Of a stretch of 42,251 bases of DNA, positions 3,084 through 36,567 are shown piece after piece. Every line of letters starts with the position of its first letter. The stretch's first letter is position 1. The DNA is from Thermoplasmata archaeon (GTDB lineage Archaea; Thermoplasmatota; Thermoplasmata; RBG-16-68-12). Position numbers and translations under genes: made by a program. The stretch covers positions 1 through 42,251 of the forward strand of contig DATBXC010000097.1 in the NCBI GenBank assembly GCA_036514455.1. Reading direction: 5' to 3'. Below the pieces are notes generated by a model, which saw only the letters and a program-made list of their open reading frames with translations, did not search any database and had not been told where the DNA came from.

Positions 3084-6000
3084 TTACTGCCGGGGGACAA
3101 CCCCGCTCCCTGCGGGAGTTGCCGCGCGCCGGCGGCGCGCCGTCCTGCGGACCAGCGGCACGACGATGATCATCGCCATCAGAGGGATCGTGAGGGCCTC
3201 GAACTCTGGAATGGGCACGGTGGCCCGGGAATCGGAGGCCCCGGGGTTCGCACCGTTGTAGTTGATCCGAACGGAGCCGCCCGCCTCGACCGTGATTTTG
3301 AACCGGATCCGCTCCGACGAGCTCAGGGTCTGGGCCGCGATCGAGCCCGTCGTGAACGTCACGTCGCTCCCGTACGTGTTGCTGTTCGTCGGGCCGTACA
3401 GGGTGAGGTAGCTCGTGCACGCCTCGTTCGAGCACTTGTCGATCTCGACGGAGTAGACGGGCGCGAACGTCACGGTCGCCTTCACGTGGCTGACGCGGAC
3501 CTCTCGAGTCGTCCCGTCGTTGTCGCGGACCCCCACTTGGAGTGCGTTGATGTCCGACAGCGTCCACGCGGAGCTGTCCGCAGGGTCCGTCGTCCACGTG
3601 TCGCTCCACACGGTGTAGGTTGCCAATGCGCAGTTCGTGCTCGTGCCGCCGACGCCCGTGGTGGTCCCGCTCTTCAGAATCACCCGCGCGTCCACAGCCG
3701 GGTTCGCGGTCTTCCGACACGACGCCTCGACGATTACGTTGACGATCGTCAGCGGCGAGGGGGCCGACGACCAGTCCGGGATGTTATAGAGTGAATCCGT
3801 CGCCACGCTCGCGTTCGAGACGATGTACGTCGTGTCCCCGTCGTTCGCGCTCTCGTCGACGCACTGGTACTCGTTCGCTTCCGTGCACCCGACCGCCGTC
3901 CACGCGTTTGCGTCCCCGTTAGCGCTCGGGGAGAAGCTCGTAGTGCCGTTCGAGACGCGGTCGATGTCCAGGATGACCTCCCAGATTCCTGCGACGGTGT
4001 CCGGCACGTCGAGCGGCGTGAACCAGCAGATCGACTGGGTCCCGGAGAAGGTCGTCGAGGTCGCGGAGGACCCCGCGGTCGTGCTCGCGGCGAGGTTCGT
4101 CGTGCACAGCGTCCCCGTCGTGGCCCCGCTCGTGAAGAACCACTTCTGGTTCCCGGCGATGTCGCGGGTGCCTGTCCGGATCGTGGGGCCTGCGGTCGGG
4201 TCGAAGGCCCCGGACCAGTCCCGGACCTCGAAGTACGCCTGCGAGTCGTTCTGGAACCCGCGCCCCGCCAAGTCGAAGGACAGCTCCACCTGCGCGTACG
4301 CCGAGGCCACGGGGATCGTCTCGAGAGGGGTCCAGGCCCATTGCAGCTGGCTCGCCCCGCCCGCGAATGCGCTTAGGCTTCGGGAGGCCGGCACGCCGTA
4401 CTTGCCCCGCACTTCCGCGAGGTAGTCCGCGCCGATCGCGTTGATTCGGAACCCCGTCGCCGTGGAGTTGTCCGCGTCGAAGAACACCCGGGCGACGTCC
4501 TCGCCGAGGACGACGGGCCGGAAGGACGGGCCGATGTACACGCTGACAAGCCGGTTCGCGTACGGGGCGGGGAACGTCGCGGGGATCGTCGTGTTCAACC
4601 AGTAATCGCTGCCCGTTGGGTAATCGAGGACCGTGTCGTTGTCGACGTCGTTCCCGGTCGCGACATCCGCGAGGCCGTCGTTGTTGAAGTCGAACCGGAG
4701 GTCGGGGTTCGGCAGGGCGAACTCGACGTCGTCCGGGACCGTGTCGCGGTCCGAGTCCGGCACGCCCGTCCCGGGAGCCGGCGCGGCGCCGTTCCGCGCG
4801 GGCACGACCGCGCCGTCGAGCGCCCGGCCCGCCACGCGCAGGTACGCGGACGCGCGCTGGGCGTTCATGGAGAACGCGTACTCCGTGACATCGAGGCGGG
4901 CGGGAAGCCCCGGGTTCCCGACCGGGTCCGTCCGGACCGTGGTCCATTCCGAGAACCCGCCGTCGACCGTGGCCGCGGCCGGCACGAATGCGAGGTGCCC
5001 GACGTCCCGCGCGGCCGGTGAGTGTGCCAGGGTGACCGCCGCGTCCCCCGCCACGACGTCGAGCGGCGCGTCGACCCGCGCGCCGAGCGTGTCCCCGTTC
5101 GCCGCGGTCACGTCCGCGACGACGAAGAGCCGGTCCGACTGGCCTGGGCCAAGGGACCGCGGGGTGAACTGGAACGCGATCCGGTTCGACATCGGGATCC
5201 GGTCTCCCAGGAGGCTCCCGTTCCCGTCGACGAGGTGGACCGCGGAGACGGACGTCGTCGGCGCGGTCCCTGTCAGGGTGACCGTCAGCGCGTCGTACGT
5301 GACGGGCCGGACCGCCCCGAGGAGGTCCAGCCGGAGGAGCTGGACGTTCGAACCGGAGAGGATCTCGGGCGCGACCGGCGTCTCGACGACCCGCAGGCTG
5401 CCCGCGGTCGTGCTGACGACGTAGTCCGCCTCGTCCTCGGAGCCGTCGTGCGCCTGGGCGTGGAGGAGGACGTCCATCGCCGGCCGGTCCGTCGCGAGCG
5501 ACAGCCAGTCGACCTGGGCCTCCGCGCTCGCGCCGGCGACCGCGGCAGGGATGGACGCGGCCTTGATCCAGCCGTTCCAGTCCTTCGGGTCGCGGTTCGT
5601 GTCCCACTCCCACAGCGTGCTCGCGTTCACCGCGCCGCCCCAGCCGGAGAGCTCGATGAGCCGGTCCGCGCCGTGGCCCCGGACCGCGTATCCGGTCGCG
5701 GGGTCGCGGTCCACGTCGATGAACGCGCGGAATGTGTCTACCGTGGGCGGGGACCCGCCGCCCGCGAGCGCGGTGCCGTTCACCTGGAAATAGAACGCGA
5801 GGTAGTCGAGGTTGTCCGCGACGCCGAAGCGGACGAGGTCGATGTTCGTCGCGACCCCCGCCCTGGGCGGGACGGAGGCGAGGGCCGCGGACCCCCAGTC
5901 CCCGAAGCTGCCGTCGATCGCGATCGGGTACGCTCGGGTCTGGAGCGAGGTCGGCCCCAGGAGCGGGAGCAGAAGGAGGACCACGCTGAGCAGCGGGATC

Positions 6001-7739
6001 ACGTACAGCTTCCACCGGTTCACCGACGTCTCCCGCCGGAACCGCGCGGAGCCGAGACCGTTCGTGAAGCCGTTGCCGTTCGTGAGGCCGTTCGTCATCC
6101 CGCGGCGCATCGAGGCGAGCCCGTTCACGAGCCCGTTCGTGAGCCCGTTCGTCCGGCCGCGCAACCCGTTCGTGATGCCGTTCGTCCGCCCCTTCAGGCC
6201 GTTCGTGAGCCCGTTCGTCCGGCCGCGCAACCCGTTCGTGAGCCCGTTCGTGCGACCCCGGAGCCCGTTCGTCAGGCCGTTCGTCCGGCCCTTCAGGCCG
6301 TTCGTGAGGCCGTTCGTCCTGCCCGTCGGGCCGCGCCGGGCCTCGCGGGCGAGCCCGTTCGTCATCCCCCGCCGTCCCGTCTCGGGGGCGGGCGCGGGCG
6401 GGCGCGACGGGACCACGCGGTCCGCGGGCCTCCGCTCCTCCGGGGCCCCGGTCTCGGGCTGGACCCGCATCTCCTCGCGGACCTTGTCCTGGATTGCGGC
6501 CTTCCCCAGGGAATCGAGCTCCTCCGCGAGGCCGACCTCCTCGATGAAGCGGGCCCCGCAGTTCGGGCACTCGTGCGCGTCGACGGGGACGGGGCCCTCG
6601 CACAGCGGACAGGGCACCGTGTCCCCCGTGCGGGCCTTCGCATCCTCCCGCATCGTGACGTCCTCCGCCTTGCGGCGGCTCTCCTGGGCGCCGCGGATGT
6701 CCCCGAGCCGGGCGGCCAGCTTCGCGCGTAGGACCCACAGGCCCGGGTACGTGTCAGAGACCCGCGCGAGGGCGTCGAGGGCCCCGATCGCACCCCGGTA
6801 GTCCTCCATCGCCGCGAGCGCGGACGCCTTCGCGAACAGCGCGTCCGTGTCGGACGGGTCGATCCGGATCCGCTCCTCCGCGATCCGGAGGATCATCTGC
6901 GCCCGGTTCGACGGGGCGGCGGGCGCCGGGGGCCCGGAGGCCCTGGATCGGGCGGAGGCGGGGGGCGTCGGAGGGGCGGCCCGCGTCGGGGCGGGCGTGG
7001 GCTCCGGGACGGACGCGCCAGGTCCCACGACGCGGATCCCCCGGTCCGCGAGGATGTGGAAGACGTGGAACTTCGCGTCCGGGACCGTGTCCTTCAGGCT
7101 GAGCACGCCGACCTTCCGGACGATCTCGTCCCCCTCCCGCCGGCGCTCGATCTCGATCACGCCGTCGAAGGGCTGGGAGACGCTCGACACGGTCGCCTCG
7201 TCGTGCATCTCCTTCTCCAGGAGGAACAGCGCCGTCACCCGGTGGCGGGAGAGCTTCGCCTTCGTCGACTGGGCGAACGCGTACACCTGGCCGACCTCGA
7301 ACGCTTGGAGGGCGGGGGACAGGATCTCCAGGACCGCGCGGCGGGTCGTGCCCGGCGCGAGGGCGGTGAGGGCGCGGCTGAGCGCGATCCCCACGTTCGT
7401 CAGGTCCACGGAGGCGCGGTACACGTGGTCCCGTTCCTCCACGCCCGCCACGCTCTCCTCCTGGTACGCGTGCCAGTCGACGACCTTCAGGCGGTTCCCC
7501 GCGATCGCCTCCTTCACGTTCACGCCGAGCTTCGCGAGGGACTCGAGGTACTGCTCCGGCGTCGTCGAGGAGACGACGACCACGACCGCGTCCCCGGCCC
7601 GCAGGCCCTCCGCGAGGAACTGGTGGCCGAACGTGTCCTTCTCGTTCCCCGACGGGCCGCGGAGCACGACGCTGACAGCCTCCGGGAGGCCGCCCCCGAC
7701 GAGCGGGTCGAACCCCTCGACGCCGGTCCGGACCCGCAT
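3084..7739 (-). CDS. Giant chimeric membrane protein (1551 aa): degenerate KaiC-like domain, Pro-rich linker, TPR-like helical region, zinc ribbon, GRTNGLTNGL repeats, TM helix, about 930-aa ectodomain, PEF-CTERM-like anchor
   Basis: Track ORF 3084..7901 trimmed to the ATG at 7739, which overlaps the upstream TGA (TGATG).
- N-terminus MRVRTGVEGFDPLVGGGLPEAVSVVLRGPSGNEKDTF is paralogous to the upstream KaiC-like gene.
- Zinc ribbon CPLCEGPVPVDAHECPNCG at 6558-6611.
- Repeats at 6055-6375.
- TM helix WKLYVIPLLSVVLLLLPLLGPTSL at 5943-6014.
- C-terminus VPIPEFEALTIPLMAMIIVVPLVRRTARRRR. Confidence 0.85.
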   Translation of the reverse strand: MRVRTGVEGFDPLVGGGLPEAVSVVLRGPSGNEKDTFGHQFLAEGLRAGDAVVVVVSSTTPEQYLESLAKLGVNVKEAIAGNRLKVVDWHAYQEESVAGVEERDHVYRASVDLTNVGIALSRALTALAPGTTRRAVLEILSPALQAFEVGQVYAFAQSTKAKLSRHRVTALFLLEKEMHDEATVSSVSQPFDGVIEIERRREGDEIVRKVGVLSLKDTVPDAKFHVFHILADRGIRVVGPGASVPEPTPAPTRAAPPTPPASARSRASGPPAPAAPSNRAQMILRIAEERIRIDPSDTDALFAKASALAAMEDYRGAIGALDALARVSDTYPGLWVLRAKLAARLGDIRGAQESRRKAEDVTMREDAKARTGDTVPCPLCEGPVPVDAHECPNCGARFIEEVGLAEELDSLGKAAIQDKVREEMRVQPETGAPEERRPADRVVPSRPPAPAPETGRRGMTNGLAREARRGPTGRTNGLTNGLKGRTNGLTNGLRGRTNGLTNGLRGRTNGLTNGLKGRTNGITNGLRGRTNGLTNGLVNGLASMRRGMTNGLTNGNGFTNGLGSARFRRETSVNRWKLYVIPLLSVVLLLLPLLGPTSLQTRAYPIAIDGSFGDWGSAALASVPPRAGVATNIDLVRFGVADNLDYLAFYFQVNGTALAGGGSPPTVDTFRAFIDVDRDPATGYAVRGHGADRLIELSGWGGAVNASTLWEWDTNRDPKDWNGWIKAASIPAAVAGASAEAQVDWLSLATDRPAMDVLLHAQAHDGSEDEADYVVSTTAGSLRVVETPVAPEILSGSNVQLLRLDLLGAVRPVTYDALTVTLTGTAPTTSVSAVHLVDGNGSLLGDRIPMSNRIAFQFTPRSLGPGQSDRLFVVADVTAANGDTLGARVDAPLDVVAGDAAVTLAHSPAARDVGHLAFVPAAATVDGGFSEWTTVRTDPVGNPGLPARLDVTEYAFSMNAQRASAYLRVAGRALDGAVVPARNGAAPAPGTGVPDSDRDTVPDDVEFALPNPDLRFDFNNDGLADVATGNDVDNDTVLDYPTGSDYWLNTTIPATFPAPYANRLVSVYIGPSFRPVVLGEDVARVFFDADNSTATGFRINAIGADYLAEVRGKYGVPASRSLSAFAGGASQLQWAWTPLETIPVASAYAQVELSFDLAGRGFQNDSQAYFEVRDWSGAFDPTAGPTIRTGTRDIAGNQKWFFTSGATTGTLCTTNLAASTTAGSSATSTTFSGTQSICWFTPLDVPDTVAGIWEVILDIDRVSNGTTSFSPSANGDANAWTAVGCTEANEYQCVDESANDGDTTYIVSNASVATDSLYNIPDWSSAPSPLTIVNVIVEASCRKTANPAVDARVILKSGTTTGVGGTSTNCALATYTVWSDTWTTDPADSSAWTLSDINALQVGVRDNDGTTREVRVSHVKATVTFAPVYSVEIDKCSNEACTSYLTLYGPTNSNTYGSDVTFTTGSIAAQTLSSSERIRFKITVEAGGSVRINYNGANPGASDSRATVPIPEFEALTIPLMAMIIVVPLVRRTARRRRAATPAGSGVVPRQ
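6055..6375 (-). repeat. In-frame tandem repeat, 33-nt / 11-aa unit (GRTNGLTNGL[KR]), about 6 regular units plus degenerate TNGL copies on both sides
   Basis: The protein reads GMTNGLAREARRGPTGRTNGLTNGLKGRTNGLTNGLRGRTNGLTNGLRGRTNGLTNGLKGRTNGITNGLRGRTNGLTNGLVNGLASMRRGMTNGLTNGNGFTNGLGS. On the plus strand, ccgttcgt recurs with 12-21 nt spacing. Confidence 0.95.
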
Positions 7740-8452
7740 CACACCACCTTCTCCTCGGCGAGGACGTTCAGGCCCGTCGCGGTGATGTGGAAGGGATGCT
7801 TCGCCGTGTCGTGCCTCGTGAACCGCATCTTCCGGACCGTCAGGGTCCGGCGGAGTTCGCCGTGCACCTCCTCGAGCCCGAGGTGGATGAACGAGTCGCA
7901 CAGGAACTGCTCGACCCCGTAGCGGGTGAGGGCCTGGCCCTCCGGGGCCTCCGCGACGAGGAGGGTCGTCACGTCCTGCTCCCGCAGGAACCGCGCGAAC
8001 GCGAACAGCCGCTCCCGGAACTCCTCGACGCTCCGGTAGTGGAGGCCGACCGCGGACAGGGAGTCGATCACGAGGCGCCGGACCCCCGCCGCCTTCAGGG
8101 AGGACGCGAGGAACTCCTGGAGCTCGCGGAACCCGACGATGGACCCCTCCGGGCCCGCCACCCGGAGCTCCCCGAGGTCGATCAGGAGGAACCGGCCGGA
8201 CCGCTCGAGGCCCCGGCCGTCGATCCCGAAGTTCTTCATCACCCGCTCGACGCTCGCCTTCGTCTCCTCGAGGACGACGTACATCGAGGGCTCGCCGAAG
8301 CGGCCCGCGCCGTTCGCGATGAAGTGGAGCGCGAAGAGGCTCTTCCCGCTGCCCGCGGGGCCGGAGACGAGGTTCACGGTGCGGGACGGGAGCCCGCCCT
8401 GGACGAGGGAGTCGAAGCCGTCGATGCCGGTCGGCACGCGGTCCACGGTCAC
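7739..8452 (-). CDS. Stand-alone single-domain KaiC/RadA-like (RecA-superfamily) ATPase, motifs intact
   Basis: This is the 3' part of track ORF 7739..9229. It starts at the GTG at 8452, which overlaps the upstream TGA (GTGA). The sequence is VTVDRVPTGIDGFDSLVQGGLPSRTVNLVSGPAGSGKSLFALHF (Walker A), VVLEET (catalytic Glu pair) and RRLVIDSLSAV (Walker B). 237 aa. Confidence 0.85.
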   Translation of the reverse strand: MTVDRVPTGIDGFDSLVQGGLPSRTVNLVSGPAGSGKSLFALHFIANGAGRFGEPSMYVVLEETKASVERVMKNFGIDGRGLERSGRFLLIDLGELRVAGPEGSIVGFRELQEFLASSLKAAGVRRLVIDSLSAVGLHYRSVEEFRERLFAFARFLREQDVTTLLVAEAPEGQALTRYGVEQFLCDSFIHLGLEEVHGELRRTLTVRKMRFTRHDTAKHPFHITATGLNVLAEEKVV

Positions 8453-9090
8453 CCCTCCAGCGCGGCGCGGAGGGCGTAGCGGGCGACGAGGTCCTCGCGC
8501 CCCTTCTGGGCCTCCTCCAGCGCGCCCGCCAGGATTCGACGGGCCGTCGTCCCTCCGAGGGCCTCGCCCGCGACCGCGAGGAAGTCCCCGTGGACCTCCC
8601 GGAACAGGGCCTTCAGCTGGTCCATCCCGCGGGCCCCGCCGCCGTCCAGGATCCGGGTGAACAGGTTCTCCTTCAGCCCGACGCGATTCCCCTCCAGGCG
8701 GGCCTTCAGGCGGTCCTCGATCCCCGGCCAGCCGAGCCGGTGGGCCTTCGCGAGGACGCCGGAGACGTAGTCCAGGTAGAAGCCGAGGGCCTCCCGCAGG
8801 GGCTCGGGCCCCGCCACGAACTCGAGGTCCAGGGTGATGCGGTGGCTCGCGAGCCGGTACTCGTACGCGCCCCGCGTCCGGGACTTCCGGAGCCGGCGCT
8901 CGAGGAACCCGAGGTCGTGCATCCCGCCCAGGAACTTCGAGGCGGTCGTCGTGTGGATCCGGAGGGCCCGGGAGACCTCCGTCGCAATCCGCCACTCGCC
9001 GGCGGACAGGTACCGGAGGATCGGGAGGCTGTGCTGCCCGCTCAGCAGGGCAACCGCCTCCGAGAACGCGTGCTCGTCGATTGAATCCAC
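8449..9090 (-). CDS. Winged-helix (ArsR/TrmB-like) DNA-binding protein with a helical C-terminal domain of about 130 aa
   Basis: 213 aa, GTG start at 9090. SLPILRYLSAGEWRIATEVSRALRIHTTTASKFLGGMHDLGFLERR is a typical wHTH. It is the first gene of the coupled three-gene module. Confidence 0.7.
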   Translation of the reverse strand: MDSIDEHAFSEAVALLSGQHSLPILRYLSAGEWRIATEVSRALRIHTTTASKFLGGMHDLGFLERRLRKSRTRGAYEYRLASHRITLDLEFVAGPEPLREALGFYLDYVSGVLAKAHRLGWPGIEDRLKARLEGNRVGLKENLFTRILDGGGARGMDQLKALFREVHGDFLAVAGEALGGTTARRILAGALEEAQKGREDLVARYALRAALEG

Positions 9091-9234
9091 CCCGGTCTAC
9101 CGCCCCTAGAGTTTCGTCGCGGGTACTCCACCAGGCTTGGAGTAGGGGGGTTAAGACCCCTCGCCGCCGAATTTCACCCCGGATAATCGACAACGGATTG
9201 TCCCAGTCCGCGGCCGTGGCGGGTCGCAAGGTTC

Positions 9235-9441
9235 ATGCCCGAGGGAGGGGCATGGGCCGCCGTGGCGGCGGGCGACGCGGGGCGGTTCTACGAGGTCCAG
9301 TGCCGCGGCCCGTCCCGGTGCGGGACGTTCGTGTCCGTGCGCCGACTCGAGGCGTGCCCGAAGTGCGGGTCGAGGAAGATCGCGGCGCGGGCCGCGGAGC
9401 CTCTGCGGGCCCCGCCCGCGTCCGGGGACGCGAAGGGTTAA
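9235..9441 (+). CDS. Small hypothetical zinc-ribbon-like protein
   Basis: 68 aa with an ATG start and high GC3. It has a C-x6-C ... CPKC cysteine pattern (YEVQCRGPSRCGTFVSVRRLEACPKCGS). I recognise no family. Confidence 0.4.
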   Translation: MPEGGAWAAVAAGDAGRFYEVQCRGPSRCGTFVSVRRLEACPKCGSRKIAARAAEPLRAPPASGDAKG

Positions 9442-9527
9442 GGCCGGCAAGGGCTTACCATAGTTGTTAACCTGAGGTTACCTATTTGGGACGGACCCCG
9501 GCGGCGCGCAGGCAGGATTGGCCGGAG

Positions 9528-10202
9528 ATGGCCGCGGCGACGCTCGACGAGATGCTCCGGGTCCTCGAGAACCCGACCCGGCGGCGGATCCTGGAGCGGC
9601 TCTCCCGCGAGAGCCACTACCCCCTCCAGCTCTCGAAGGAGCTCGGGGTGAGCCAGCAGGCCGTCGTGAAGCACCTGCGGACGCTCCAGGGCGCGGGCCT
9701 CGTCTCCTCGACGGAGGAGAAGAGCGACCTCGGCGGCCCCGCCCGCCGCGCGTTCTCCGCGAGCCAGCGTGTCACGGTCCAGATCGACGTGGGGCCGAGC
9801 CTGTTCCGAGCGGAGATGCGCCCCCTCGCGGAGGAGGGCGGGAAGGTCGAGGGGTTCGCGTGGGCCCAGGAGGCCCTCGAGCGGGCGCGGTCGGACAAGG
9901 ACCGCCGGCGGCGGGTGCGCACCCTCGCGGAGACGGTCCAGCGACTGAACCGCGAGGTCGAGTCGCTCGACGCGCGGCGGTCGTACATCCTTGGGCTCAA
10001 GGAGGCGTGTCTGCGGGAGGTCCACCAGAGCGTCGAGGACGTCCTAGGGGACTACGACGAGCGGCAGGTCCTGTACTGCGTGCTGGAGGAGGGCGGGCGG
10101 CCGCTCGACGACATCGCGGAACGCCTGGACCTCCGGGAGAAGGTCGTCCAGGACCTCCTCCGGCGGATCGAGCGGGAGTTCCTGTTGGAATGGGGGAGGT
10201 AG
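9528..10202 (+). CDS. ArsR-family wHTH transcriptional regulator with a coiled-coil C-terminal extension
   Basis: Track ORF 9486..10202 begins at a TTG. I prefer the in-frame ATG at 9528 ([59 protein letters not shown]), a canonical ArsR HTH_20 signature. It ends 4 nt before rpoK. Confidence 0.75.
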
Positions 10203-10206
10203 CGGG

Positions 10207-10407
10207 ATGAAGTACACGCGGTTCGAGCGGGCGAGGATCATCGGGGCGAGGGCCCTCCAGATCGCGATGGGCGCGCCGATCCTGCTGGACGTGCCGAGGG
10301 GCCTCGTGGACCCGATCGAGATCGCGACCCTGGAGTTCGCGCGGGCCGTAATCCCGATCACGGTGAAGCGGGAGCTCGAGGCGTCCCCCGACGTATCTCG
10401 ACGGTGA
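10207..10407 (+). CDS. rpoK: DNA-directed RNA polymerase subunit K (Rpo6)
   Basis: 66 aa. [44 protein letters not shown] is the conserved Rpo6/omega-like core. Confidence 0.9.
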
Positions 10408-10990
10408 GCACGCCCGTCTTGAGGCCCCGGACCTCCTTGTTCGTGAGCGGCCGGACCTCCGCCGCGTCGTGGAGGATCGCGCTGTTCCCGAAGGGGTCGT
10501 CGAGGATGATCGTGAACGGCGCCTCGCCCCCGATCATCCGGTCGAGGGTCGCCCGGGAGGCCTCGGCCCGGCGCCGCGCGGCGGGCGAGTCCGCGTTGCG
10601 GGCCAGGAACCCGAGGATGTCGCGGAAGCGGTGGAGGACGCCCTCCGCGTTCGAGATGAACCCCTCGCTCCGCGGCCCCGGCTCGAGGAGCCCGCCGATC
10701 TCGGGGATCCGGATCGTGCCCGAGCTCGAGCGGACGACCCGCGCGGAGAGGTCCGAGGGCCGCGCGACCCGGAGCGCGTGGCGGGTCGGGGGCCCCTCCC
10801 TCGCGAGGAGCACGTCCGCGTGTCGGAACCCGCACGCCTCGCAGAGCACGGTCGTCTGGAGCGCCTCCCCGAAGTACGGGATGTCCATCGAGAGGGACCG
10901 CATTCGGAGGTTCGCCGCCCCGCACATCGGGCACGGCGCGTGGAGGGCGACGTCCCGCACGGGGGACGCGGGGTCCGCAGGACCGGGCAT
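10358..10990 (-). CDS. ZPR1-type zinc-finger protein
   Basis: Track ORF 10358..11056 trimmed to the ATG at 10990. [36 protein letters not shown] is the ZPR1 zinc-finger signature, followed by the ZPR1 beta-domain ([15 protein letters not shown]...[12 protein letters not shown]). The 3' end overlaps rpoK convergently by 50 nt. Confidence 0.8.
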
Positions 10991-11014
10991 CGGGCCGCGA
11001 AAGGATGCCCGCGC

Positions 11015-11109
11015 GGTATAATCCTTGACCCCGCGCCGGCCCCGACGAAGGTTCAAATATCAGTTATGCATCCAGAGTATACAACTAACAGTTCACTACT
11101 TGGAGGTGA
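11015..11109. promoter_or_regulatory. Divergent promoter region between the ZPR1-type gene and cdc48
   Basis: On the minus strand, ggtataatcc at 11015-11024 lies 25-34 nt upstream of the ATG at 10990. On the plus strand, ttcaaatatc lies at 11052-11061 and gtataca at 11077-11083. An SD-like ggaggtga at 11102-11109 precedes the cdc48 ATG at 11115. Confidence 0.4.
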
Positions 11110-11114
11110 GGACA

Positions 11115-13307
11115 ATGCGCGAGGACGAGAAGTTCCTGCGGGTCCTGGAGGCGAAGCCGGGCGACGTGGGCCGGGGCGTGGTCCGGGTCGACCCGGAGCT
11201 GATGGGCCCGCTGCACGTCCAGGCGGGCGGACCGGTGATCGTGGAGGGACGCCGGAAGACGGCCGCGGTCCTCGCCCCCGGGTATCCGGAGGACGCGAAC
11301 CGCGGGGTGATCCGCCTCGACGGCATCCAGAGGCGCAACGCGCAGATCGGCCTCGACGAGAAGGCCGGGATCCGCGTGGTCACGCCGAAGCCCGCCGCGA
11401 AGCTGACCCTCGCCCCCCTCGAGCCCGTGAGGATCATGGGCGGGGAGGAGTATCTCGCGCAGGCCCTCGACGGCCGCCTCGCGGCCCGGGGCGACGTGCT
11501 GTCCGTGCCCGTGATGGGCCGGCGGTTCGAGTTCCTCGTACAGTCCTACGCGCCCTCCGCGGAGGCGGTCGAGATCACGGCGTTCACGAAGCTGAAGATC
11601 GCGGAGCGGCCCGCCAAGGAGGGGGAGGCGAAAATCCCCCGCGTGAGCTACGAGGACATCGGCGGCCTCGGGGACGAGGTCGCGAAGGTGCGGGAGATGA
11701 TTGAGCTCCCGCTCCGCCACCCGGAGCTGTTCGACCGCCTCGGGGTGGAGGCGCCGAAGGGCGTCCTGCTCCACGGCCCGCCCGGGACCGGGAAGACGCT
11801 CCTTGCGAAGGCCGTGGCCTCGGAGACGAACGCGAACTTCCACGCGATCTCGGGCCCGGAGATCATGTCGAAGTTCTACGGGCAGAGCGAGGAGAACCTG
11901 CGGGAGATCTTCACGCAGGCCCAGGAGAACGCCCCGAGCATCATCTTCATCGACGAGATCGACTCGATCGCGCCGAAGCGGGACGAGGTGACGGGCGAGG
12001 TCGAGCGGCGGGTCGTCGCGCAGCTCCTCTCCCTGATGGACGGCCTGCAGGCCCGCGGGAAGGTCGTCGTGATCGGCGCGACGAACCGGCCGAACTCCCT
12101 GGACCCCGCGATCCGGCGGCCGGGCCGGTTCGACCGGGAGATCGAGATCGGGATCCCGGACCGGGACGGCCGGCTCGAGGTCCTCCAGGTCCACGCGCGG
12201 AACGTGCCCCTCGCGAAGGACGTCGACCTCAAGGAGCTCGCCGGGATCACGCACGGGTACGTCGGCGCGGACCTCGCGGCCCTCGTGAAGGAGGCCGCGA
12301 TGCGCTCGCTGCGGCGGGCCCTGCCGAGCATCGACCTCGAGGTCGACGAGATCCCCGTCGAGGTCCTGCGGAGGCTCGAGGTCACGCGGGAGGACTTCCT
12401 CCAGGCGTTCCGGGAGATGGAGCCCTCGACGCTCCGGGAGGTGCTGATCGAGCGGCCGAGCGTCCACTGGGACGAGATCGGCGGGCTCGAGGACGCGAAG
12501 CAGGAGCTCCGGGAGGCGGTGGAGTGGCCCCTGAAGTACGCGAAGCTCTTCACGCACGCGGGCGCGAAGGCCCCGAAGGGCGTGCTCCTGTACGGCCCGC
12601 CCGGGACCGGGAAGACGCTCCTCGCGAAGGCCGTCGCCACGGAGGCGGAGGCGAACTTCATCTCCGTCAAGGGGCCGGAGTTCCTGAGCAAGTGGGTCGG
12701 GGAGAGCGAGCGCGCGGTGCGGGAGACCTTCCGGAAGGCGAAGGCCGCCGCGCCGTGCATCGTGTTCTTCGACGAGGTCGACGCGGTCACCCCGCAGCGC
12801 GGGATGGGCGCGGACAGCCACGTCACGGAGCGGGTGATTTCCCAGGTCCTCACGGAGATGGACGGCCTCGAGGAGCTCCACAACGTCACGGTCGTGGCGG
12901 CGACGAACCGTCCGGACATGGTCGACCCCGCCTTGCTCCGGCCGGGCCGGTTCGACCGGCTCGTGTACATCCCGCCCCCGGACCTCGAGGCCCGGAGGTC
13001 GATCGTCGCGATCCACGCGAAGGGGAAGCCCCTCGCGCCCGAGGTGGACCTGGACGACATCGCGAAGCGGACGGAGGACTACACGGGCGCGGAGATCGCC
13101 GCGGTGTGCAACGAGGCCTCGATGCTCGCGATCCGGGACTTCGTCGCGGCGGGAGGTCCGCTCGAGGACAAGTACGTGAAGAAGCTGGCCCTGAAGCGGG
13201 ACCACTTCGACCGGGCCCTCGCGAAGATCCGCCCGCGGTCGAAGGGCGCGCTGCAGCGGCACCAGGACCTCTCGACGCGGTTCCGGGACGGGATGGAGGT
13301 CGCGTAG
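11115..13307 (+). CDS. cdc48: CDC48/VCP-type AAA+ ATPase (two AAA domains)
   Basis: Track ORF 11025..13307 trimmed to the ATG at 11115 (MREDEKFLRVLEAKPGDVGRGVVRVDPELM, the CDC48 N-domain). Two Walker A motifs (both [14 protein letters not shown]) and two Walker B motifs (IIFIDEIDS and IVFFDEVDA) are present. 730 aa. Confidence 0.95.
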   Translation: MREDEKFLRVLEAKPGDVGRGVVRVDPELMGPLHVQAGGPVIVEGRRKTAAVLAPGYPEDANRGVIRLDGIQRRNAQIGLDEKAGIRVVTPKPAAKLTLAPLEPVRIMGGEEYLAQALDGRLAARGDVLSVPVMGRRFEFLVQSYAPSAEAVEITAFTKLKIAERPAKEGEAKIPRVSYEDIGGLGDEVAKVREMIELPLRHPELFDRLGVEAPKGVLLHGPPGTGKTLLAKAVASETNANFHAISGPEIMSKFYGQSEENLREIFTQAQENAPSIIFIDEIDSIAPKRDEVTGEVERRVVAQLLSLMDGLQARGKVVVIGATNRPNSLDPAIRRPGRFDREIEIGIPDRDGRLEVLQVHARNVPLAKDVDLKELAGITHGYVGADLAALVKEAAMRSLRRALPSIDLEVDEIPVEVLRRLEVTREDFLQAFREMEPSTLREVLIERPSVHWDEIGGLEDAKQELREAVEWPLKYAKLFTHAGAKAPKGVLLYGPPGTGKTLLAKAVATEAEANFISVKGPEFLSKWVGESERAVRETFRKAKAAAPCIVFFDEVDAVTPQRGMGADSHVTERVISQVLTEMDGLEELHNVTVVAATNRPDMVDPALLRPGRFDRLVYIPPPDLEARRSIVAIHAKGKPLAPEVDLDDIAKRTEDYTGAEIAAVCNEASMLAIRDFVAAGGPLEDKYVKKLALKRDHFDRALAKIRPRSKGALQRHQDLSTRFRDGMEVA

Positions 13308-13370
13308 GACGGTCGGGCCCCACAGGGACCGGCGCGAGTCCATCGCGGTCGGGCCCCACACGGGGCCCGA

Positions 13371-20589: not shown

Positions 20590-22308
20590 CTACGCGACCG
20601 CCAGCGGGATCTCGAGGTAGTCCGCCCCGGCGCCCGAGGACGTCATGAGGTACACGGCCACCGCGAAGTCCGCCGCCGCGGCGGATTCGGTCGAGAACGA
20701 GTACACGCGCTCGCCGCCCGCGTTCTCCGCGACGTCGAGCGCCACCACGCCGTTCGCGTGGATGACCCGCGTGATCACCCGGTACGAGGAGTCCGAGGGC
20801 GCGCCCACGTGGATCGCGTACGTCCCGCCGCCCAGGTCCTCCGACACGACGGAGGTGAGGCGCGCGGGTTTCGGTCCCACGGGCTCGAACTGGGCGAGGG
20901 TGTACGCGGCCGTCGTGTGGACGACGATCGGGTCGATCACGACGTTCGCGGGGACGATCCGGAGCTTCGCGTCGAAGGGCCCGCCGCGGCCCGCCGCGAG
21001 GACCTCGGCGCCCGCGAAGTCGATCCGCACCCAGCTCTGGTCCGTGCCCAGGTTCACCCGGTTCCACGCGGTCGTCACGACGTGGTCCTCCGTGGGGACG
21101 CTCCGCATCAGGGCGACGTTGCTCGGCGCCGAGCCCGCGGCGTACAGGGTGCCGGAGACGTCGTACCAGCCCCAGTTCCGGACGGACACGGCCGCCTCGA
21201 CGGTGAGGGACTCGAACAGCCCGTCGCCGTCGGCGTCCGTCCCGTAGTCCCGGACCTCGCCTGTGAACTCGATCGGCATCCAGGGCGCCTGGAAGTCGTA
21301 CCAGTGGAGGGTCGCCTCGAGGCGGGTCTCCGCCTTCAGGCCGAGCGGCGTGGGCGGGAGCACGTACGGTTGCCGCAGGCCGAGCTCGGACCCGTCCGGC
21401 GGCGCCGCGAACGCGGGCTCCTCCACGAACTCCGCGGTCTCGGAGCCGCAGCACGGGTGGGATTCCGTCTGCACCTGCGCCTCGATGACCGTGATGTGGA
21501 TGTCCGTCGGCCCGTCGATCCCGCTGAGGTACACCTGCTCGGGCGACACGGAGAGCGTGACCTCCTGGGCGCCCGGTTCCATCGAGACGAACTCCGCCCC
21601 GACCGTGCTCGGGTCCCCCGTGGGGGGCCCGAAGAAGCGGTTCGTGACGCCCTGCAGGAACAGGTCGTCGCTCTCCGCCCGCACCGAGTAGAAGCCCTGC
21701 TCCCGGACCGTGAGCGGGACGCGGATCGTGTACGCGTCCACCTTCCCGTCCCCACTGGAGTCGTCCTGGACCGCGGTCACGGGGCCGATGGAGACGACCA
21801 CGGGCTGCTCCTGGAACGATGCGGCCCCGTACGCGGGGGTCCGGAAGCTCCACTCGTACACCCGGCCGATCATGTCCGGGCTCGGCGGGATCTCGAACGC
21901 GCTGTCCCGGTCCTCCCGGATGAACGTCAGCCGCACGACATACGGCCCGTCGATGCCGCTCGCGCGGATGTCGGGGCCCCAGAACCCGACGCCGAACACG
22001 TTCGGCCCGCGGTCGAGCTCGACGCGCCCCGTCGTCTGCGCGATCGCCGCCCCCGTCGACGGCTGCAGCAGCACGGCGTTCGCGCTGTAGTCGCCGGACT
22101 CGGGGAGGTCGACCCGCGCCTTCACGACCAGGTACTCGGGCGTCCCGTCGCCATCGTGGTCCGTGGGGCTCGCCTGGAACCCGCCGGGGAGCTGGTCCCC
22201 CCAGAACATGTACCGGTACACGGCCGCACCCGCAATCGCGCTCGCAGCGACCACGCACAGGCCGAACAGGATGACCGTGGCTCGCCGTGACGCAGGATCC
22301 CTCGTCAA
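20590..22308 (-). CDS. N-terminally anchored secreted or surface protein with three DxDGDG-type putative Ca-binding motifs
   Basis: Track ORF 20590..22518 trimmed to the in-frame TTG at 22308. That TTG is preceded by GGAGG (22316-22320) with a 7-nt spacer. The product begins (M)TRDPASRRATVILFGLCVVAASAIAGAAVY. Motifs DHDGDGTPE, DSSGDGKVD and DADGDGLFE are present. The start is uncertain. Confidence 0.6.
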   Translation of the reverse strand: MTRDPASRRATVILFGLCVVAASAIAGAAVYRYMFWGDQLPGGFQASPTDHDGDGTPEYLVVKARVDLPESGDYSANAVLLQPSTGAAIAQTTGRVELDRGPNVFGVGFWGPDIRASGIDGPYVVRLTFIREDRDSAFEIPPSPDMIGRVYEWSFRTPAYGAASFQEQPVVVSIGPVTAVQDDSSGDGKVDAYTIRVPLTVREQGFYSVRAESDDLFLQGVTNRFFGPPTGDPSTVGAEFVSMEPGAQEVTLSVSPEQVYLSGIDGPTDIHITVIEAQVQTESHPCCGSETAEFVEEPAFAAPPDGSELGLRQPYVLPPTPLGLKAETRLEATLHWYDFQAPWMPIEFTGEVRDYGTDADGDGLFESLTVEAAVSVRNWGWYDVSGTLYAAGSAPSNVALMRSVPTEDHVVTTAWNRVNLGTDQSWVRIDFAGAEVLAAGRGGPFDAKLRIVPANVVIDPIVVHTTAAYTLAQFEPVGPKPARLTSVVSEDLGGGTYAIHVGAPSDSSYRVITRVIHANGVVALDVAENAGGERVYSFSTESAAAADFAVAVYLMTSSGAGADYLEIPLAVA

Positions 22309-22342
22309 CTCGTTCCCTCCTTCACCCGCTAATGCCCTCCCT

Positions 22343-22369
22343 CGATATTTGGAGTTGTTGGTATAGTTC
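22343..22369. promoter_or_regulatory. Divergent promoter island between the surface-protein gene and the radical-SAM gene
   Basis: The AT-rich sequence cgatatttggagttgttggtatagttc has two TATA-like boxes. The first is at 22343-22352 (serving the minus-strand gene). The second is at 22360-22369 (serving the plus-strand gene). Confidence 0.4.
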
Positions 22370-22408
22370 GGAAGGGGTCCAACCGGCTTGCGGGGGAATG
22401 CCCGCGGA

Positions 22409-23536
22409 ATGCCACGCCCCGCCGCGCCCGCCAACCTTATCTCCCCCCACCGGCTCGGTCCCCCCGTGCGCGTCACGGAACGCCCCTGCGGGGGCTCGGT
22501 CCGCGGGTCCCTCCCCATCGGCTGCCTCCAGTGCGAGGAGGGGGCGAAGATGGTCCTCTTCGTGACCGGCCTATGCGGCTTCCACTGTGTCTACTGCCCC
22601 GTCTCGGACGAGAGGATGTACCACGACGTCGTCTACGCGGACGAGAAGCGCGTCGCCTCGGACGAGGACGTGCTCGAGGAGGCGCGGGCGATCCGCGCGA
22701 AGGGGGCGGGGATCACGGGCGGGGACCCGCTGGACGCCGTGGAGCGCACGTGCCACTACATCCGGCTCCTGAAGCGAGAGTTCGGCCCGGGCTTCCACAC
22801 GCACCTGTACACGATGACCGCGGACCCCGAGAAGGTCCGGGGCCTCGCGGAGGCGGGCCTCGACGAGCTCCGGTTCCACGTCCCTCCCGGGATGTGGGCC
22901 CGCGCGGACCGGTCCCCGTACGTCGGGGCCTCCCGCCTCGCGCGGGAGCTCGGGGTCACCGTGGGCCTGGAGGTCCCCCTGCTCCCGGAGCGGAAGGAGG
23001 ACCTCGTGAAGCTCATCGAGTGGGCGGAGGCGGAGGGCCTCGCGTTCGTGAACCTGAACGAGCTCGAGTACTCCGACGCGAACTACGCCCGCATGAAGCG
23101 GCAGGGCTACGAGATCAAGCACGAGCTCTCGTACGGCGTGAAGGGCTCGGACGAGGCCGCCCTCGAGATCCTCCGGCGGCCCTGGCGGACCACGGTCCAC
23201 TACTGCACGAGCGGCTACAAGGACGGGTGGCAGCTCCGCAGCCGGATCAAGCGGCGTGCGGAGAACGTCGCCCGCCCGTGGGACGTCGTCACGGAGGACG
23301 GGACCCTGCTCAAGGGTGTGATCGAGGGGGACGGACTTGACGAGGTGATGCGGGACCTGTCGAGGACGCACGGCGTGCCGGAGGACCTGATGGGCCTCGA
23401 CGGCGCGCGCCGCCGCCTCGAGGTCGCGCCGTGGATCCTCGAGGAGCTCGCCGCCCGCCTCGGGAGGCCCTCGTACCTTGTCGAGGAGTACCCGACCGCG
23501 GACGGGCTCGAGGTCGAGCGGACCCGCCTCCCCTAG
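22409..23536 (+). CDS. Radical SAM protein (COG2108-like, related to activating enzymes; function unknown)
   Basis: Track ORF 22388..23536 starts at a TTG. I prefer the ATG at 22409. GSLPIGCLQCEEGAKMVLFVTGLCGFHCVYCPVS contains the CxxxCxxC radical-SAM cluster motif, preceded by the conserved LPxGCxxCxxG segment. Confidence 0.75.
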   Translation: MPRPAAPANLISPHRLGPPVRVTERPCGGSVRGSLPIGCLQCEEGAKMVLFVTGLCGFHCVYCPVSDERMYHDVVYADEKRVASDEDVLEEARAIRAKGAGITGGDPLDAVERTCHYIRLLKREFGPGFHTHLYTMTADPEKVRGLAEAGLDELRFHVPPGMWARADRSPYVGASRLARELGVTVGLEVPLLPERKEDLVKLIEWAEAEGLAFVNLNELEYSDANYARMKRQGYEIKHELSYGVKGSDEAALEILRRPWRTTVHYCTSGYKDGWQLRSRIKRRAENVARPWDVVTEDGTLLKGVIEGDGLDEVMRDLSRTHGVPEDLMGLDGARRRLEVAPWILEELAARLGRPSYLVEEYPTADGLEVERTRLP

Positions 23537-27618: not shown

Positions 27619-28044
27619 TCAGGCCACGCTGACGCTCTGGATTGGGAAGTGGCGCGCGATCAGGTCCCGCGCGACCCGGAGGTTCTTCCCCTCCCGGCCG
27701 ATCGCCCGCCCCTTGAGCGTCGTGTCGACCGTGACGGTCGCGTGGGTCACGTCCCCGCGCTGCTCGATCTCGACCTTCTTCACCTTGTAGTTCCGGAACA
27801 CGTTCGCGATGAACGCCTCCGGCACTTCCGAGAACTCGACGACGAGGATGTCCCGCCGCATCAGCCGCCGCAGCTTCGCGACGTTCTCGCCCTTCTTCCC
27901 GATCGCGCGGCCGATCTCCCCCCTCGGGACGACGAACACGATGCGGTCCTCGGTGTCGAGGCAGTCCAGGACCTGGGTCCTCGCGACCTCCTGGAACAGG
28001 GATGCGTACCGGAGCGTGTCCTCCGTGAACGTGACTTCGGCCAT
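27619..28044 (-). CDS. nusA: Archaeal NusA-like transcription factor (two KH domains)
   Basis: 141 aa. The two KH GxxG motifs are GRAIGKKGENVAKL and GRAIGREGKNLRVA. Confidence 0.9.
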   Translation of the reverse strand: MAEVTFTEDTLRYASLFQEVARTQVLDCLDTEDRIVFVVPRGEIGRAIGKKGENVAKLRRLMRRDILVVEFSEVPEAFIANVFRNYKVKKVEIEQRGDVTHATVTVDTTLKGRAIGREGKNLRVARDLIARHFPIQSVSVA

Positions 28045-28051
28045 TGGTGCC

Positions 28052-28327
28052 CTAGATCTGGAGGATGTTCGATTCGCCGGGGTCCAGGATGGCGAGCGCG
28101 GACACGGAGAAGGGCTTCCCGCACGCCGCCCCGAGCTCCGCGTTCGTCCCGGGGAACACGTGGACCTTCACGCCCGCCATCGACTTCAGCTCGGCGTCCG
28201 GACAGTTCGAGGAGACGACGACCATCCGGGCCTTCTTCTCCCGTGCCGCCCGCTTCGCCCGGGACGCCCCGAGGAGGACCTTGCCCGTGTCCACCGCGAC
28301 CTTCAGCGCGCGCGCCTCGTCGATCAC
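28052..28327 (-). CDS. rpl30e: 50S ribosomal protein L30e
   Basis: This is the 3' part of track ORF 28052..29236. It starts at the GTG at 28327, which overlaps the rpoA'' TGA (GTGA). The sequence is [28 protein letters not shown]...[26 protein letters not shown]. Confidence 0.9.
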
Positions 28328-35700: not shown

Positions 35701-36310
35701 CCTCGAGGGAGATCAGGGCCCGTTCCGTGCCGCCGATGATGAAGTACCCGCCCGCGTCGACCGGGTCCTCCCCCAATTCGACGAGCTTCTCGCGGTACTC
35801 CCCCTCGGAGAGCTCGCCCTCGATCTCGAGGTTCTCCTTGTGCAGGGAGCACTTCTTCGACTTCACCATGATCGGCAGGTTCCCGATGTGCACGCGCTCG
35901 GGCTCCCGCTCGATCCCGTTCTCGACGACGGTGAAATCCAGGTAGATCGGCGACGTGTAGTTCAGGTTCCGGAGGCGGGCCTCCATCGGCGTCAGCGCGT
36001 GGGTCGCCCCGTTCGCCTCCTTCACGATTGGCGTGCCGACGGAGATCGTGGGCTTCGCGTCCAGGTCGATGCGGGCCCGGTCGTCCCGGCGCCGGCCGAT
36101 CCGGATCTCGATGATGTCCCCCTCCGTGCGGTCCTCGTCGAGCTTGAAGATCCCGCGGCGGTCGTCCTCCGGCGAGGAGCGCATGCTGTCGACGATCCGC
36201 TGCATCCGCGAGCTCGGGTTGTCGATCGTCGGCAGGAAGTCGTTGAACGACGCGATGTGGTGGTTCACGATGGAGCGTTCATGGAAGAACGCCTCCACGA
36301 GTTCTCGCAT
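32720..36310 (-). CDS. rpoB: DNA-directed RNA polymerase subunit B (Rpo2), unsplit
   Basis: 1196 aa. The motifs are [32 protein letters not shown] and the C-terminal Zn motif CGNTDCGHF...CPVC. The B'/B'' parts are fused in one ORF. Confidence 0.97.
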
Positions 36311-36315
36311 TCCGC

Positions 36316-36567
36316 CTACCTCCCTATCACGAGTCGATACGCCTCGGACACGCCCGCCGTCTCCGACAGGCGCGTGACCTTGATGATCCGGCCCTCGCCG
36401 ATCGGGCCGTGGACCCGCTCCAAGACCTTGATCACGGGGTCCGCCTTCTTGATCTTCGGCAGCTGGTCCTTCGTGATCCGAAGGGCCGCAAGGATCCTCG
36501 CCGCCTCCTCGTCCGACAGCAGCCGGTGCTCAGGAACGAGCCTGTGCTGGAGCACGTTGAACCTCAT
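36316..36567 (-). CDS. rpoH: DNA-directed RNA polymerase subunit H (Rpo5)
   Basis: Track ORF 36316..36705 trimmed to the ATG at 36567 ([45 protein letters not shown]). The discarded 5' extension overlaps the tRNA gene. Confidence 0.9.

Follow-up and report, generated by a model that had tools for sequence, protein, structure and literature searches.

Organization of the locus

The 42,251-nucleotide stretch of DNA analyzed here (contig DATBXC010000097.1 of the assembly GCA_036514455.1, from a Thermoplasmata archaeon; hereafter, the window) has a G+C content of ~70% and carries on its minus strand the gene trio under study, g1-g2-g3. These genes encode, respectively, a 213-residue ArsR/Phr-like winged-helix protein (g1, 8449..9090), a 237-residue protein predicted to be a single-domain KaiC-like ATPase (g2, 7739..8452), and a membrane protein of 1551 residues (g3, 3084..7739), the giant of the module. 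The stop codon of g1 overlaps the GTG start codon of g2 within the tetranucleotide GTGA (8449-8452, junction GGGGTGACC), and the stop codon of g2 overlaps the ATG start codon of g3 within TGATG (7737-7741, junction GTGTGATGCGG). The overlapping minus-strand trio had already been reported in a first-pass annotation, made by a model from the DNA letters, and its coordinates and both stop/start overlaps are confirmed here. Ordered from its N-terminus, g3 consists of an inactivated KaiC domain (iKaiC), a Pro/Ala-rich linker, TPR-like helices, a Cys4 zinc ribbon, a tract of TNGL repeats, a transmembrane helix, a beta ectodomain, and a terminal PEF motif followed by a transmembrane stretch and an Arg-rich tail. 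Soil and sediment Thermoplasmata share a conserved and probably autoregulated operon that couples a doubly anchored giant cell-surface protein to the cytoplasm, and the region represents one copy of it.

The winged-helix protein and the active-type KaiC

AlphaFold2 (AF2) modelling and Foldseek comparison of g1 indicate a winged helix-turn-helix (wHTH) domain at residues ~5-85 and a C-terminal helical bundle at residues ~98-210, as expected from its earlier description as a winged-helix protein with an extra helical domain. The predicted local distance difference test (pLDDT) score of the model is 83.6 overall and exceeds 90 over residues 10-80, and its wHTH domain matches SmtB, CadC, and CzrA with a Foldseek probability of 1.0 and TM-scores relative to the target of 0.55-0.66, and these values confirm the wHTH fold. 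The best full-length matches are PH1932 (2cwe) and Phr (2p4w), ArsR-type archaeal regulators. At the sequence level, no Pfam HTH model scores above its gathering value for g1 (HTH_IclR reaches 17.6 bits for a cut-off of 22, and MarR_2 16 bits for one of 27), and a search of the PDB with the g1 sequence returns nothing at E <= 10. Some g1 homologues do reach HTH_20 or MarR in Pfam. These homologues constitute a tight family of 200-217 residues, devoid of named relatives and confined to the gene context of the module, and a profile search with the wHTH alignment produced no relatives beyond this family.

Regarding g2, residues 6-234 of its 237 match the Pfam KaiC family (PF06745) with an E-value of 1.2e-61 and 208.5 bits, for a cut-off of 26.6. 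Its Walker A (GPAGSGKS), catalytic Glu pair (LEE), and Walker B (LVIDS) motifs are all intact, and GPAGxGK[ST], LEE, and hhhDS are retained in 19/19 distinct g2 orthologues. Family assignment and motifs thus agree with the single-domain KaiC-like protein put forward in the first-pass annotation, and ATPase activity is predicted from them. The protein lies outside the circadian KaiC group, as it shows one domain in 237 residues without CI-CII duplication and scores 116.7 bits with circ_KaiC (cut-off 546) and 156 bits with PRK09302 (cut-off 408) in NCBIfam. Both g2 and the N-terminal domain of g3 additionally give weak NCBIfam matches to ArlH/FlaH, with E-values of 9e-9 and 8e-6, respectively.

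The cytoplasmic part of the giant

Residues 1-245 of g3 (7005..7739, minus strand) form the iKaiC domain. Residues 3-239 match PF06745 with an E-value of 5.6e-24 and 85.2 bits, while a profile built from 25 g3 homologues retrieves from the PDB the KaiC structure 8zn5 (E 1.7e-32) and, over its full length, PH0284 (E 2e-20). Pfam and the family-profile search therefore concur in placing the first ~240 residues of the giant in the KaiC fold, as initially proposed. This domain is paralogous to g2 (27% identity, E 4e-12), and weak scores are also obtained with MEDS and DUF7090 and, in homologues, with DUF7504.

The domain departs from an active KaiC at each catalytic motif. Its Walker A reads GPSGNEKD (vs GxxGxGK[ST]), SS replaces the catalytic EE, and its Walker B is LEILS, with Asp changed to Glu, vs hhhDS. 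Upon scoring the degenerate Walker A pattern G..G.EK[LD] in the giants, 79 of the 81 with a recognizable N-terminus were found to carry E or D where the second Walker A Gly is expected, and S/T is replaced in them by L, D, or E. This shared degeneration indicates that the inactivation is ancient. Since the pseudo-KaiC domain is nonetheless 50-79% identical across the family, it must keep a conserved role other than hydrolysis, and its conservation implies functions that may include, for example, oligomerization, nucleotide sensing, or partner binding.

The remaining cytoplasmic modules follow in the order in which the first-pass annotation described them, with its Pro-rich linker, zinc ribbon, and GRTNGLTNGL tract all being recovered. 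The Pro/Ala-rich linker (residues 246-300; 6840..7004, minus strand) contains 22% P and 22% A. It is followed by a TPR-like helical region (residues ~301-372; 6624..6839, minus strand), a part of the earlier description that is weak in g3 itself, where only TPR_9 is reached (E 0.06, 13.8 bits, cut-off 35), and clear in the family, the g3 family profile matching designed TPR proteins with an E-value of 5e-20 and the homologue P0117 matching TPR_19 with one of 2.9e-11. The Cys4 zinc ribbon (CPLC...CPNC; residues 377-399; 6543..6611, minus strand) matches UPF0547 with an E-value of 0.003, and its C377, C380, C391, and C394 are invariant across 25 homologues. Finally, 15 TNG[LIF] motifs make up a cytoplasmic tract at residues 458-562 (6054..6368, minus strand). 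Its tandem repeat core (6130-6324) has a period of 33 nucleotides and 5.9 copies, encoding GRTNGLTNGLR/K, and no Pfam family matches these repeats. They appear at the same position in nearly all complete homologues, in 5-22 copies (as many as 30 across the wider family), and are always located just inside the membrane, between the zinc ribbon and the transmembrane helix.

Membrane span, ectodomain, and C-terminal signal

Transmembrane helix 1 (residues 573-601; 5937..6023, minus strand) shows a hydropathy peak of 2.32 and is conserved in homologues. Beyond it, residues 602-1507 (3219..5936, minus strand) are predicted by AF2 and Foldseek to fold as an all-beta ectodomain. The single transmembrane helix with a large ectodomain that had been described is thus found, the length of the latter being ~906 residues instead of ~930. 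Its conserved core spans residues 602-1200 (4140-5936), the C-terminal third being more variable, and its AF2 model, with a pLDDT of 86, is entirely beta. In this model, the core appears as two jelly rolls similar to DOMON domains or carbohydrate-binding modules (CBM), with the motifs DGxFxDW ... FxDxDxxxxTGY ... GADY, plus one or more immunoglobulin-like sandwiches. Foldseek matches comprise CBM16, the N-terminal CBM of a sialidase, the DOMON domain of dopamine beta-hydroxylase, accessory domains of GH101 and GH31, and Cry toxin domain III, and none of them is a catalytic domain. No PDB match to the ectodomain was obtained in the family-profile search, nor any NCBIfam match. Surface-layer (S-layer) families are likewise absent from the Pfam and NCBIfam matches of g1-g3, as are PDB S-layer proteins from the top 50 Foldseek matches, although a role of S-layer type, of a novel kind, is conceivable.

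Within the second jelly roll, Asp-rich DxDxDG loops resembling those of type 3 thrombospondin repeats occupy residues ~989-1074 (4518..4775, minus strand). Their Asp, Asn, and Gly columns are near-invariant (D394-D444 in ectodomain numbering) in a segment that is modelled as disordered, and by their motif they are putative Ca2+ sites. From these features we infer that the ectodomain acts as a glycan- or Ca2+-binding stalk.

Residues 1509-1551 and the stop codon (3084..3215, minus strand) encode a PEF-type sorting or anchor signal, with IPEF, a hydrophobic helix, and the basic stretch RRTARRRR. The tail, TVPIPEFEALTIPLMAMIIVVPLVRRTARRRR, thus contains the PEF motif, the hydrophobic helix, and the basic end, and [IV]PEF followed by a hydrophobic stretch and an Arg-rich tail is found in 15/16 intact full-length homologues examined, so that the C-terminal PEF-type signal attributed to the giant in the first-pass annotation is sustained by the family as well. 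The last 59 residues of g3 give no match at E <= 10 to the curated NCBIfam PEF-CTERM model, which is weak negative evidence because HMMER filters may drop short models. The window open reading frames (ORFs) that were scanned include no archaeosortase gene.

Conservation of the gene arrangement

More than 220 homologues of g3 were retrieved at E <= 1e-5, with 1500-2600 residues and identities of 35-67%, many of them being colinear over 98-100%. Their named sources are all Thermoplasmata, 'Methanobacteriota', or Methanomassiliicoccales metagenome-assembled genomes (MAGs), and databases name them 'ATPase domain-containing protein', 'hypothetical', or 'KaiC/GvpD/RAD55 family', the last from JGI. 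Homologues from these separate assemblies run colinearly across the repeat tract and carry the repeats at the same place, which makes a misjoin at this point, a worry raised about the giant ORF, unlikely.

A scan of one genome per species yielded 46 loci (L006-L051), to which contigs retrieved through exact protein look-up were added, and the gene arrangement was called by tblastn over 54 related loci. Three arrangements were recognized: wHTH-KaiC-giant (Type A, 19 loci), wHTH-giant with the two genes 6-8 nucleotides apart and no KaiC (Type B, 27 loci), and giants without a wHTH gene directly upstream (Type C, 9 giants). Every Type C giant is preceded by a further giant that ends in PEF-CTERM, and these cases thus correspond to tandem arrays. 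Intergenic gaps range from -11 to +23 nucleotides throughout the loci, and the gap between the g2 stop and the g3 start is of -4 to +2 in 19/19 KaiC-bearing loci. Such an arrangement, found again and just as tightly spaced in over 40 related loci, goes beyond chance, and the adjacency on which the proposed module was founded therefore holds in 46 wHTH-headed loci, 19 of them with KaiC. Pairing of the giant with an active paralogue, also part of that proposal, stands for these 19 loci and fails in the other 27 of the 46, so the pseudo-KaiC domain can do without KaiC as a partner. The first-pass annotation further deduced a stoichiometric operon from the overlapping codons, which is contradicted by the two or three giants that can stand in tandem behind a single wHTH-KaiC pair. 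Tandem arrays of this kind were observed in L012, L016 (giants at 8001, 13301, and 18823), L031, and L049.

The window locus is syntenic with several relatives, being bordered by CDC48 and a GHMP kinase on one flank and by DUF2240, HTH_3, and PAN on the opposite one. Three distantly related wHTH homologues (28-32% identity) lie instead in unrelated neighbourhoods (Nop/IF-2B/PEPCK; CorA), and there too KaiC and an iKaiC-headed giant come after the wHTH gene. The module being intact amid unrelated neighbours, the association appears functional and not just an inherited gene order. Several paralogous modules coexist within single MAGs, each with its own cognate wHTH, and the distal ectodomain modules vary among homologues (FG-GAP, BNR/Sortilin, LamG, LTD, DUF11). 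Both the number of paralogues and these variable distal modules reflect a diversification typical of sensors or adhesins. In a neighbour-joining tree of the pseudo-KaiC domains, Type A loci are on all deep branches and Type B loci in nested clades, indicating that the tripartite state is ancestral and that KaiC was lost later.

Three database proteins, P0064, P0066, and P0077, have their KaiC motif from residue 232 and might be taken as wHTH-giant fusions. Their N-terminal extension is an Arg/Pro-rich out-of-frame read-through over the wHTH gene, and they were discarded as start-codon miscalls instead of being accepted as Rosetta-stone fusions. Public calls start ~230 codons early in some homologues (as in locus L005, 5001-5680), with the result that the wHTH gene is missing from the annotation.

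Conserved elements upstream of the operon

Alignment of the 130 nucleotides 5' of the wHTH genes (alignment A7) shows four conserved blocks. The most distal one in the window, GATTATCC-GGGG-TGAAATTC (9169..9188, minus strand; -98..-79 from the g1 start), has the family consensus GATAATC-N6-TGAGAAT at alignment columns 61-80, where TC and GA.A are invariant, and is possibly an activator site or one proximal to the B recognition element. It is followed by TCTTAACC (9149..9156, minus strand), with the family forms CTTATGAAC/CTTAAGAG in AT-rich conserved columns 92-100, a TATA-like sequence whose position would suit a TATA box. About 8 nucleotides downstream of it lies the palindrome O1, TCCAAGCCTGGTGGA (TCYA-N7-TRGA; 9127..9141, -51..-37 from the g1 start), and 31 nucleotides from O1 a second one, O2, TCTAGGGGCGGTAGA (9096..9110, -20..-6).

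The 15-bp palindrome TCYA-N7-TRGA is located within 110 nucleotides upstream of the wHTH start in 40/41 distinct loci, with 51 matches observed vs 1.15 expected from its density over 500 kb. Along the whole window there are three matches vs 0.45 expected; two of them are O1 and O2, and the third (21279-21293), inside a 642-residue ORF (20590-22518), is probably due to chance. The four-nucleotide arms are invariant and the spacers free, which fits an operator for a dimeric wHTH protein better than an RNA hairpin, and such conserved palindromes upstream of g1 are consistent with its putative binding to them. A hairpin at O1/O2 was rejected, as the spacers vary without a compensatory pattern around the invariant 4-bp arms. 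Two other candidate motifs were also set aside: the strict form YTCYA-N5-8-TRGAR is too narrow (one window match vs 0.46 expected, 11/41 loci), and TAGAGT-N10-14-ACTCTA merely combines half of O1 with half of O2.

The number of palindromes differs between arrangements. KaiC-less Type B loci have exactly one, in 23/23 cases, at -44..-48, while two are usual in Type A loci (-41..-56 and -11..-25, 31 nucleotides apart), the second copy (-11..-25) being confined to loci with a gene for the standalone KaiC. The palindromic element is new, its copy number tracks the presence of KaiC, and a large derived clade has lost both KaiC and O2. The conserved palindrome upstream of the wHTH gene suggests autoregulation, and, judging by position, the transcription start would fall within O1, with O2 placed on the leader, a geometry proper to repressors.

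A wider superfamily of surface proteins

The ectodomain core (residues 602-1200) was also searched against 1.84 billion cluster representatives, with clusters at 50% identity, yielding 756 clusters, of which 571 reach E <= 1e-10 and 204 reach E <= 1e-30. Only 16 of 83 apparently complete new members match the iKaiC hidden Markov model. Among 28 members without iKaiC, the cytoplasmic part contains TPR (16), HhH of the HHH_5 type (14), or double zinc ribbons (12), and their distal ectodomains include FG-GAP, DUF11, LTD, DUF7619, and DUF7507. The scaffold common to these sequences, namely an exchangeable head followed by TPR, zinc ribbon, TNGL repeats, transmembrane helix, ectodomain core, variable modules, and PEF tail, defines a broad Thermoplasmatota superfamily, of which the proteins with a pseudo-KaiC head and a wHTH partner, with or without KaiC, are one subfamily. 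An HhH head on a giant surface protein is odd in itself.

Surroundings of the operon

Upstream of g1 and divergent from it, ~145 nucleotides from its start, a 68-residue ORF (9235-9441, plus strand; G+C at third codon positions, GC3, of 0.93) encodes a putative small Cys4 zinc-ribbon protein (QCRGPSRCG…CPKCGSRK). A second ArsR-type regulator, unrelated to g1, lies farther upstream of the operon and is also divergent (9486-10202, plus strand; HTH_20/HTH_5, with a weak Cmi2-like C-terminal match). It is not kept beside the module in relatives, where rpoK, HSP20, or ZPR1 are found instead.

The rest of the window offers housekeeping surroundings at 27619-36741 and 37434-39964 (both on the minus strand), including an RNA polymerase operon (rpoH, rpoB, rpoA', and rpoA'', then a NusA-like KH protein) and a phosphate ATP-binding cassette (ABC) transporter cluster (PBP_like_2, BPD_transp_1, ABC_tran). 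Other window genes encode an SNF2 helicase, KsgA, a DUF7121 protein, a CitMHS transporter, CDC48, ZPR1, and PAN. Two further ORFs, of 642 (20590-22518, minus strand) and 744 residues (40019-42250, plus strand), show strong coding-type codon bias (GC3 0.94-0.96) and have no Pfam matches at E <= 1e-3. The window scan returned no tRNA or Rfam matches. With the PADLOC defence models, the sole match was that of g2 to mad8, marginal and sub-threshold (E 9e-4, 16.8 bits), and an anti-phage defence system was rejected for want of PADLOC support.

A candidate link from the cell surface to gene control

On the grounds of its sequence features, the module is a concrete candidate for a new archaeal link from the cell surface to gene control. 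The reading we favour is an outside-in (or envelope-status) feedback from surface to transcription, and our own judgement of it is evenly balanced between acceptance and doubt. According to this reading, the winged-helix dimer would repress the operon by binding both O1, at the transcription start, and O2, on the leader, while the pseudo-KaiC/TPR platform, probably oligomeric as other KaiC domains are, would bind the active KaiC and/or the helical domain of the regulator. Binding of a ligand by the ectodomain, likely a glycan or in a Ca2+-dependent manner, or else its assembly state, would change the interactions of the platform, and ATP turnover by KaiC might then reset them. The status of the surface could in this way feed back on transcription, with the KaiC step as an accessory layer, although an ancestral one.

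Several observations weigh against this proposal. No HisKA/HATPase, REC, HAMP, PAS/GAF, MCPsignal, or Pkinase domain was found in the Pfam and NCBIfam scans of g1-g3, and what Foldseek retrieves for the ectodomain are weak matches of a generic kind (best E 2.6e-6, TM-scores <=0.6 per domain). The active KaiC is missing in most loci (27/46 wHTH-headed), a single regulator can precede up to three giants, and array members may lack the pseudo-KaiC head, as does the third giant of L031 (ORF 9308-13315), which starts at the TPR region. Within the superfamily, 67/83 complete members carry other heads (HhH, TPR, zinc ribbon), so the core job of the giant must be independent of KaiC. Moreover, a local autoregulator beside a large surface-protein gene need not imply outside-in signalling.

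The same data can be read, with a lower though appreciable probability, in terms of the envelope itself. The giant would then serve wall-less or S-layer-poor Thermoplasmata primarily as an envelope scaffold or adhesin, with the wHTH protein only setting its level by autorepression. We hold it possible, if tentatively, that the pseudo-KaiC/TPR/zinc-ribbon/TNGL part would in that case oligomerize or anchor the giant, for instance in hexameric clusters, with KaiC aiding its assembly or turnover; and it is in a similar measure conceivable that no information passes from the outside to the DNA. Consistent with such a function are the distribution of the ectodomain core, TNGL repeats, transmembrane helix, and PEF anchor over a 756-cluster superfamily mostly without KaiC heads, the existence of tandem arrays and head-less members, the synteny of the locus among housekeeping genes (CDC48, PAN, DUF2240), and an ectodomain made of beta-sandwich binding-type modules only and anchored at both ends. 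On the contrary, the absence of S-layer Pfam matches, the several divergent paralogues per genome, each with its cognate wHTH, and the strict co-inheritance of the pseudo-KaiC head with a dedicated DNA-binding protein, even at non-syntenic loci, do not favour a merely structural role. The covariation of operator number with KaiC also speaks against it, suggesting that the ATPase is wired into regulation rather than into assembly. Feedback and envelope functions are, in any case, not mutually exclusive.

A more specific form of the feedback reading, which we regard as rather unlikely, is a new class of single-pass receptors in which a ring of dead KaiC domains, with a live KaiC hexamer stacked on it, would capture and release an ArsR-type repressor acting on O1/O2. 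It seems equally doubtful that such an assembly would be a split, membrane-tethered analogue of the CI/CII double ring of KaiC, in which ectodomain ligands would set ATP-dependent assembly changes.

Less probable still is a KaiC-driven assembly or secretion machine, where a g2 hexamer would sit on the pseudo-KaiC ring of g3 and ATP would drive insertion, extension, or remodelling of the giant. This machine has been likened here, at the same low probability, to a split CI/CII double ring or to ArlH on ArlI, with the wHTH protein as repressor only. It draws on the paralogy of g2 and the g3 N-terminal domain, the constant -4 to +2 gap between their genes in 19/19 KaiC-bearing loci, the weak ArlH/FlaH matches of both in NCBIfam, and the ancestral tripartite state, and it is opposed by the 27 loci without g2 and by the lack of any translocase, pore, or secretion component encoded nearby; polypeptide translocation is not known for the KaiC family. 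Finally, a chimeric ORF, chance adjacency, or a mobile or anti-phage system has only the misjoin-prone kind of sequence of the 33-nucleotide tandem repeat (6130-6324) in its favour, and is extremely improbable against more than 200 colinear homologues from independent assemblies with the repeat tract at the same place (from zinc ribbon to transmembrane helix), a gene order recurring in more than 40 loci, a PADLOC match limited to the sub-threshold one of g2 to mad8, and housekeeping flanks of normal composition, the sequences leaving misassembly or chance essentially excluded.

The feedback reading matters because archaea have few classical signalling systems. KaiC-like ATPases have been put forward, on genomic grounds, as filling this gap, but hardly any such pathway is known from one end to the other. 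A single operon offers here a candidate input (ectodomain), transducer (pseudo-KaiC and KaiC), and output (wHTH), together with a predicted DNA target (O1/O2), and the clades that lack KaiC and the second operator together are natural 'experiments'. Were the receptor-class form of this reading true, the module would stand as the first 'KaiC hub' pathway with a defined mechanism all the way from surface to promoter. It also bears on how abundant soil archaea build and monitor their envelope, and the superfamily, with its 756 clusters, is a large family of as yet unannotated surface proteins from uncultured Thermoplasmata of soils.

Comparison with known systems

Among known regulators, Phr and PH1932 share with g1 the wHTH and the long C-terminal helices. 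Phr is the heat-shock regulator of P. furiosus and represses by binding over the transcription start, which would be analogous to what is proposed here for O1. They differ in that g1 is only 15-18% identical to them, with an overall TM-score of ~0.35 and a high root-mean-square deviation, and in the limitation of the g1 family to this gene context. In haloarchaeal gas vesicle clusters, the KaiC/RecA-like P-loop protein GvpD acts on the regulator GvpE, encoded in the same cluster. The resemblance resides in the co-encoded P-loop protein and regulator, and is also found in the 'KaiC/GvpD/RAD55 family' name given by JGI to g3 homologues. However, GvpD is a soluble, active protein, the activator GvpE is bZIP-like and not an ArsR-type wHTH, and that system has no membrane or surface component.

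ArlH (FlaH), the KaiC-like component of the archaellum motor, is a single-domain protein of a membrane-associated complex. It is as such comparable to g2, and both g2 and the N-terminal domain of g3 match it weakly, but their scores are of 35 and 26 bits, respectively, vs a cut-off of 215, and archaellum genes are not nearby. A functional analogue is provided by RsgI-SigI, the anti-sigma systems of Clostridium thermocellum, which are single-pass proteins with extracellular CBM-type modules. CBM-type ectodomains, a cytoplasmic domain that may hold a transcription factor, and paralogues with different ectodomains are common to both, whereas RsgI-SigI shows no homology to the module, is bacterial and based on sigma factors, includes no ATPase, and has much smaller ectodomains.

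With PEF-CTERM substrates, the g3 family shares [IV]PEF, the hydrophobic helix, and the Arg-rich tail; it differs in having, in addition, an anchoring transmembrane helix on the N-terminal side and a large cytoplasmic part, unusual for sortase substrates. Known fusions of inactivated KaiC domains include, for DUF835, those to small membrane domains. The PEF-CTERM signal is recognized by the archaeosortase ArtC (PMC5244752).

The closest concept is that of KaiC-like ATPases which, together with inactivated KaiC domains (iKaiC, MEDS, and DUF835), have been proposed as hubs of archaeal signal transduction, as outlined in PMC5847659, which cites Makarova et al. 2017; the iKaiC fusions listed there are to REC, PAS, or HalOD1. 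In the literature, no account of the present family was found; no paper found connects KaiC domains with archaeosortase-type surface proteins, and none mentions DUF7504. Makarova, Galperin & Koonin 2017 may list a Methanomassiliicoccus homologue. The first-pass annotation spoke of a candidate undescribed transmembrane signalling or surface-assembly module, which is a fair term. The idea of inactivated KaiC domains in signalling is itself already known (PMC5847659). We therefore take the module to be a genuine variant, not described before, within the KaiC-linked modules of archaea, the mechanism of its signalling being what we infer. As in the hub concept, an active-type single-domain KaiC, a dead KaiC-like domain, and a wHTH protein are encoded in one operon; unlike in it, the inactivated KaiC domain heads a PEF-anchored surface protein of 1500-3900 residues that also contains TPR, zinc ribbon, and TNGL repeats.

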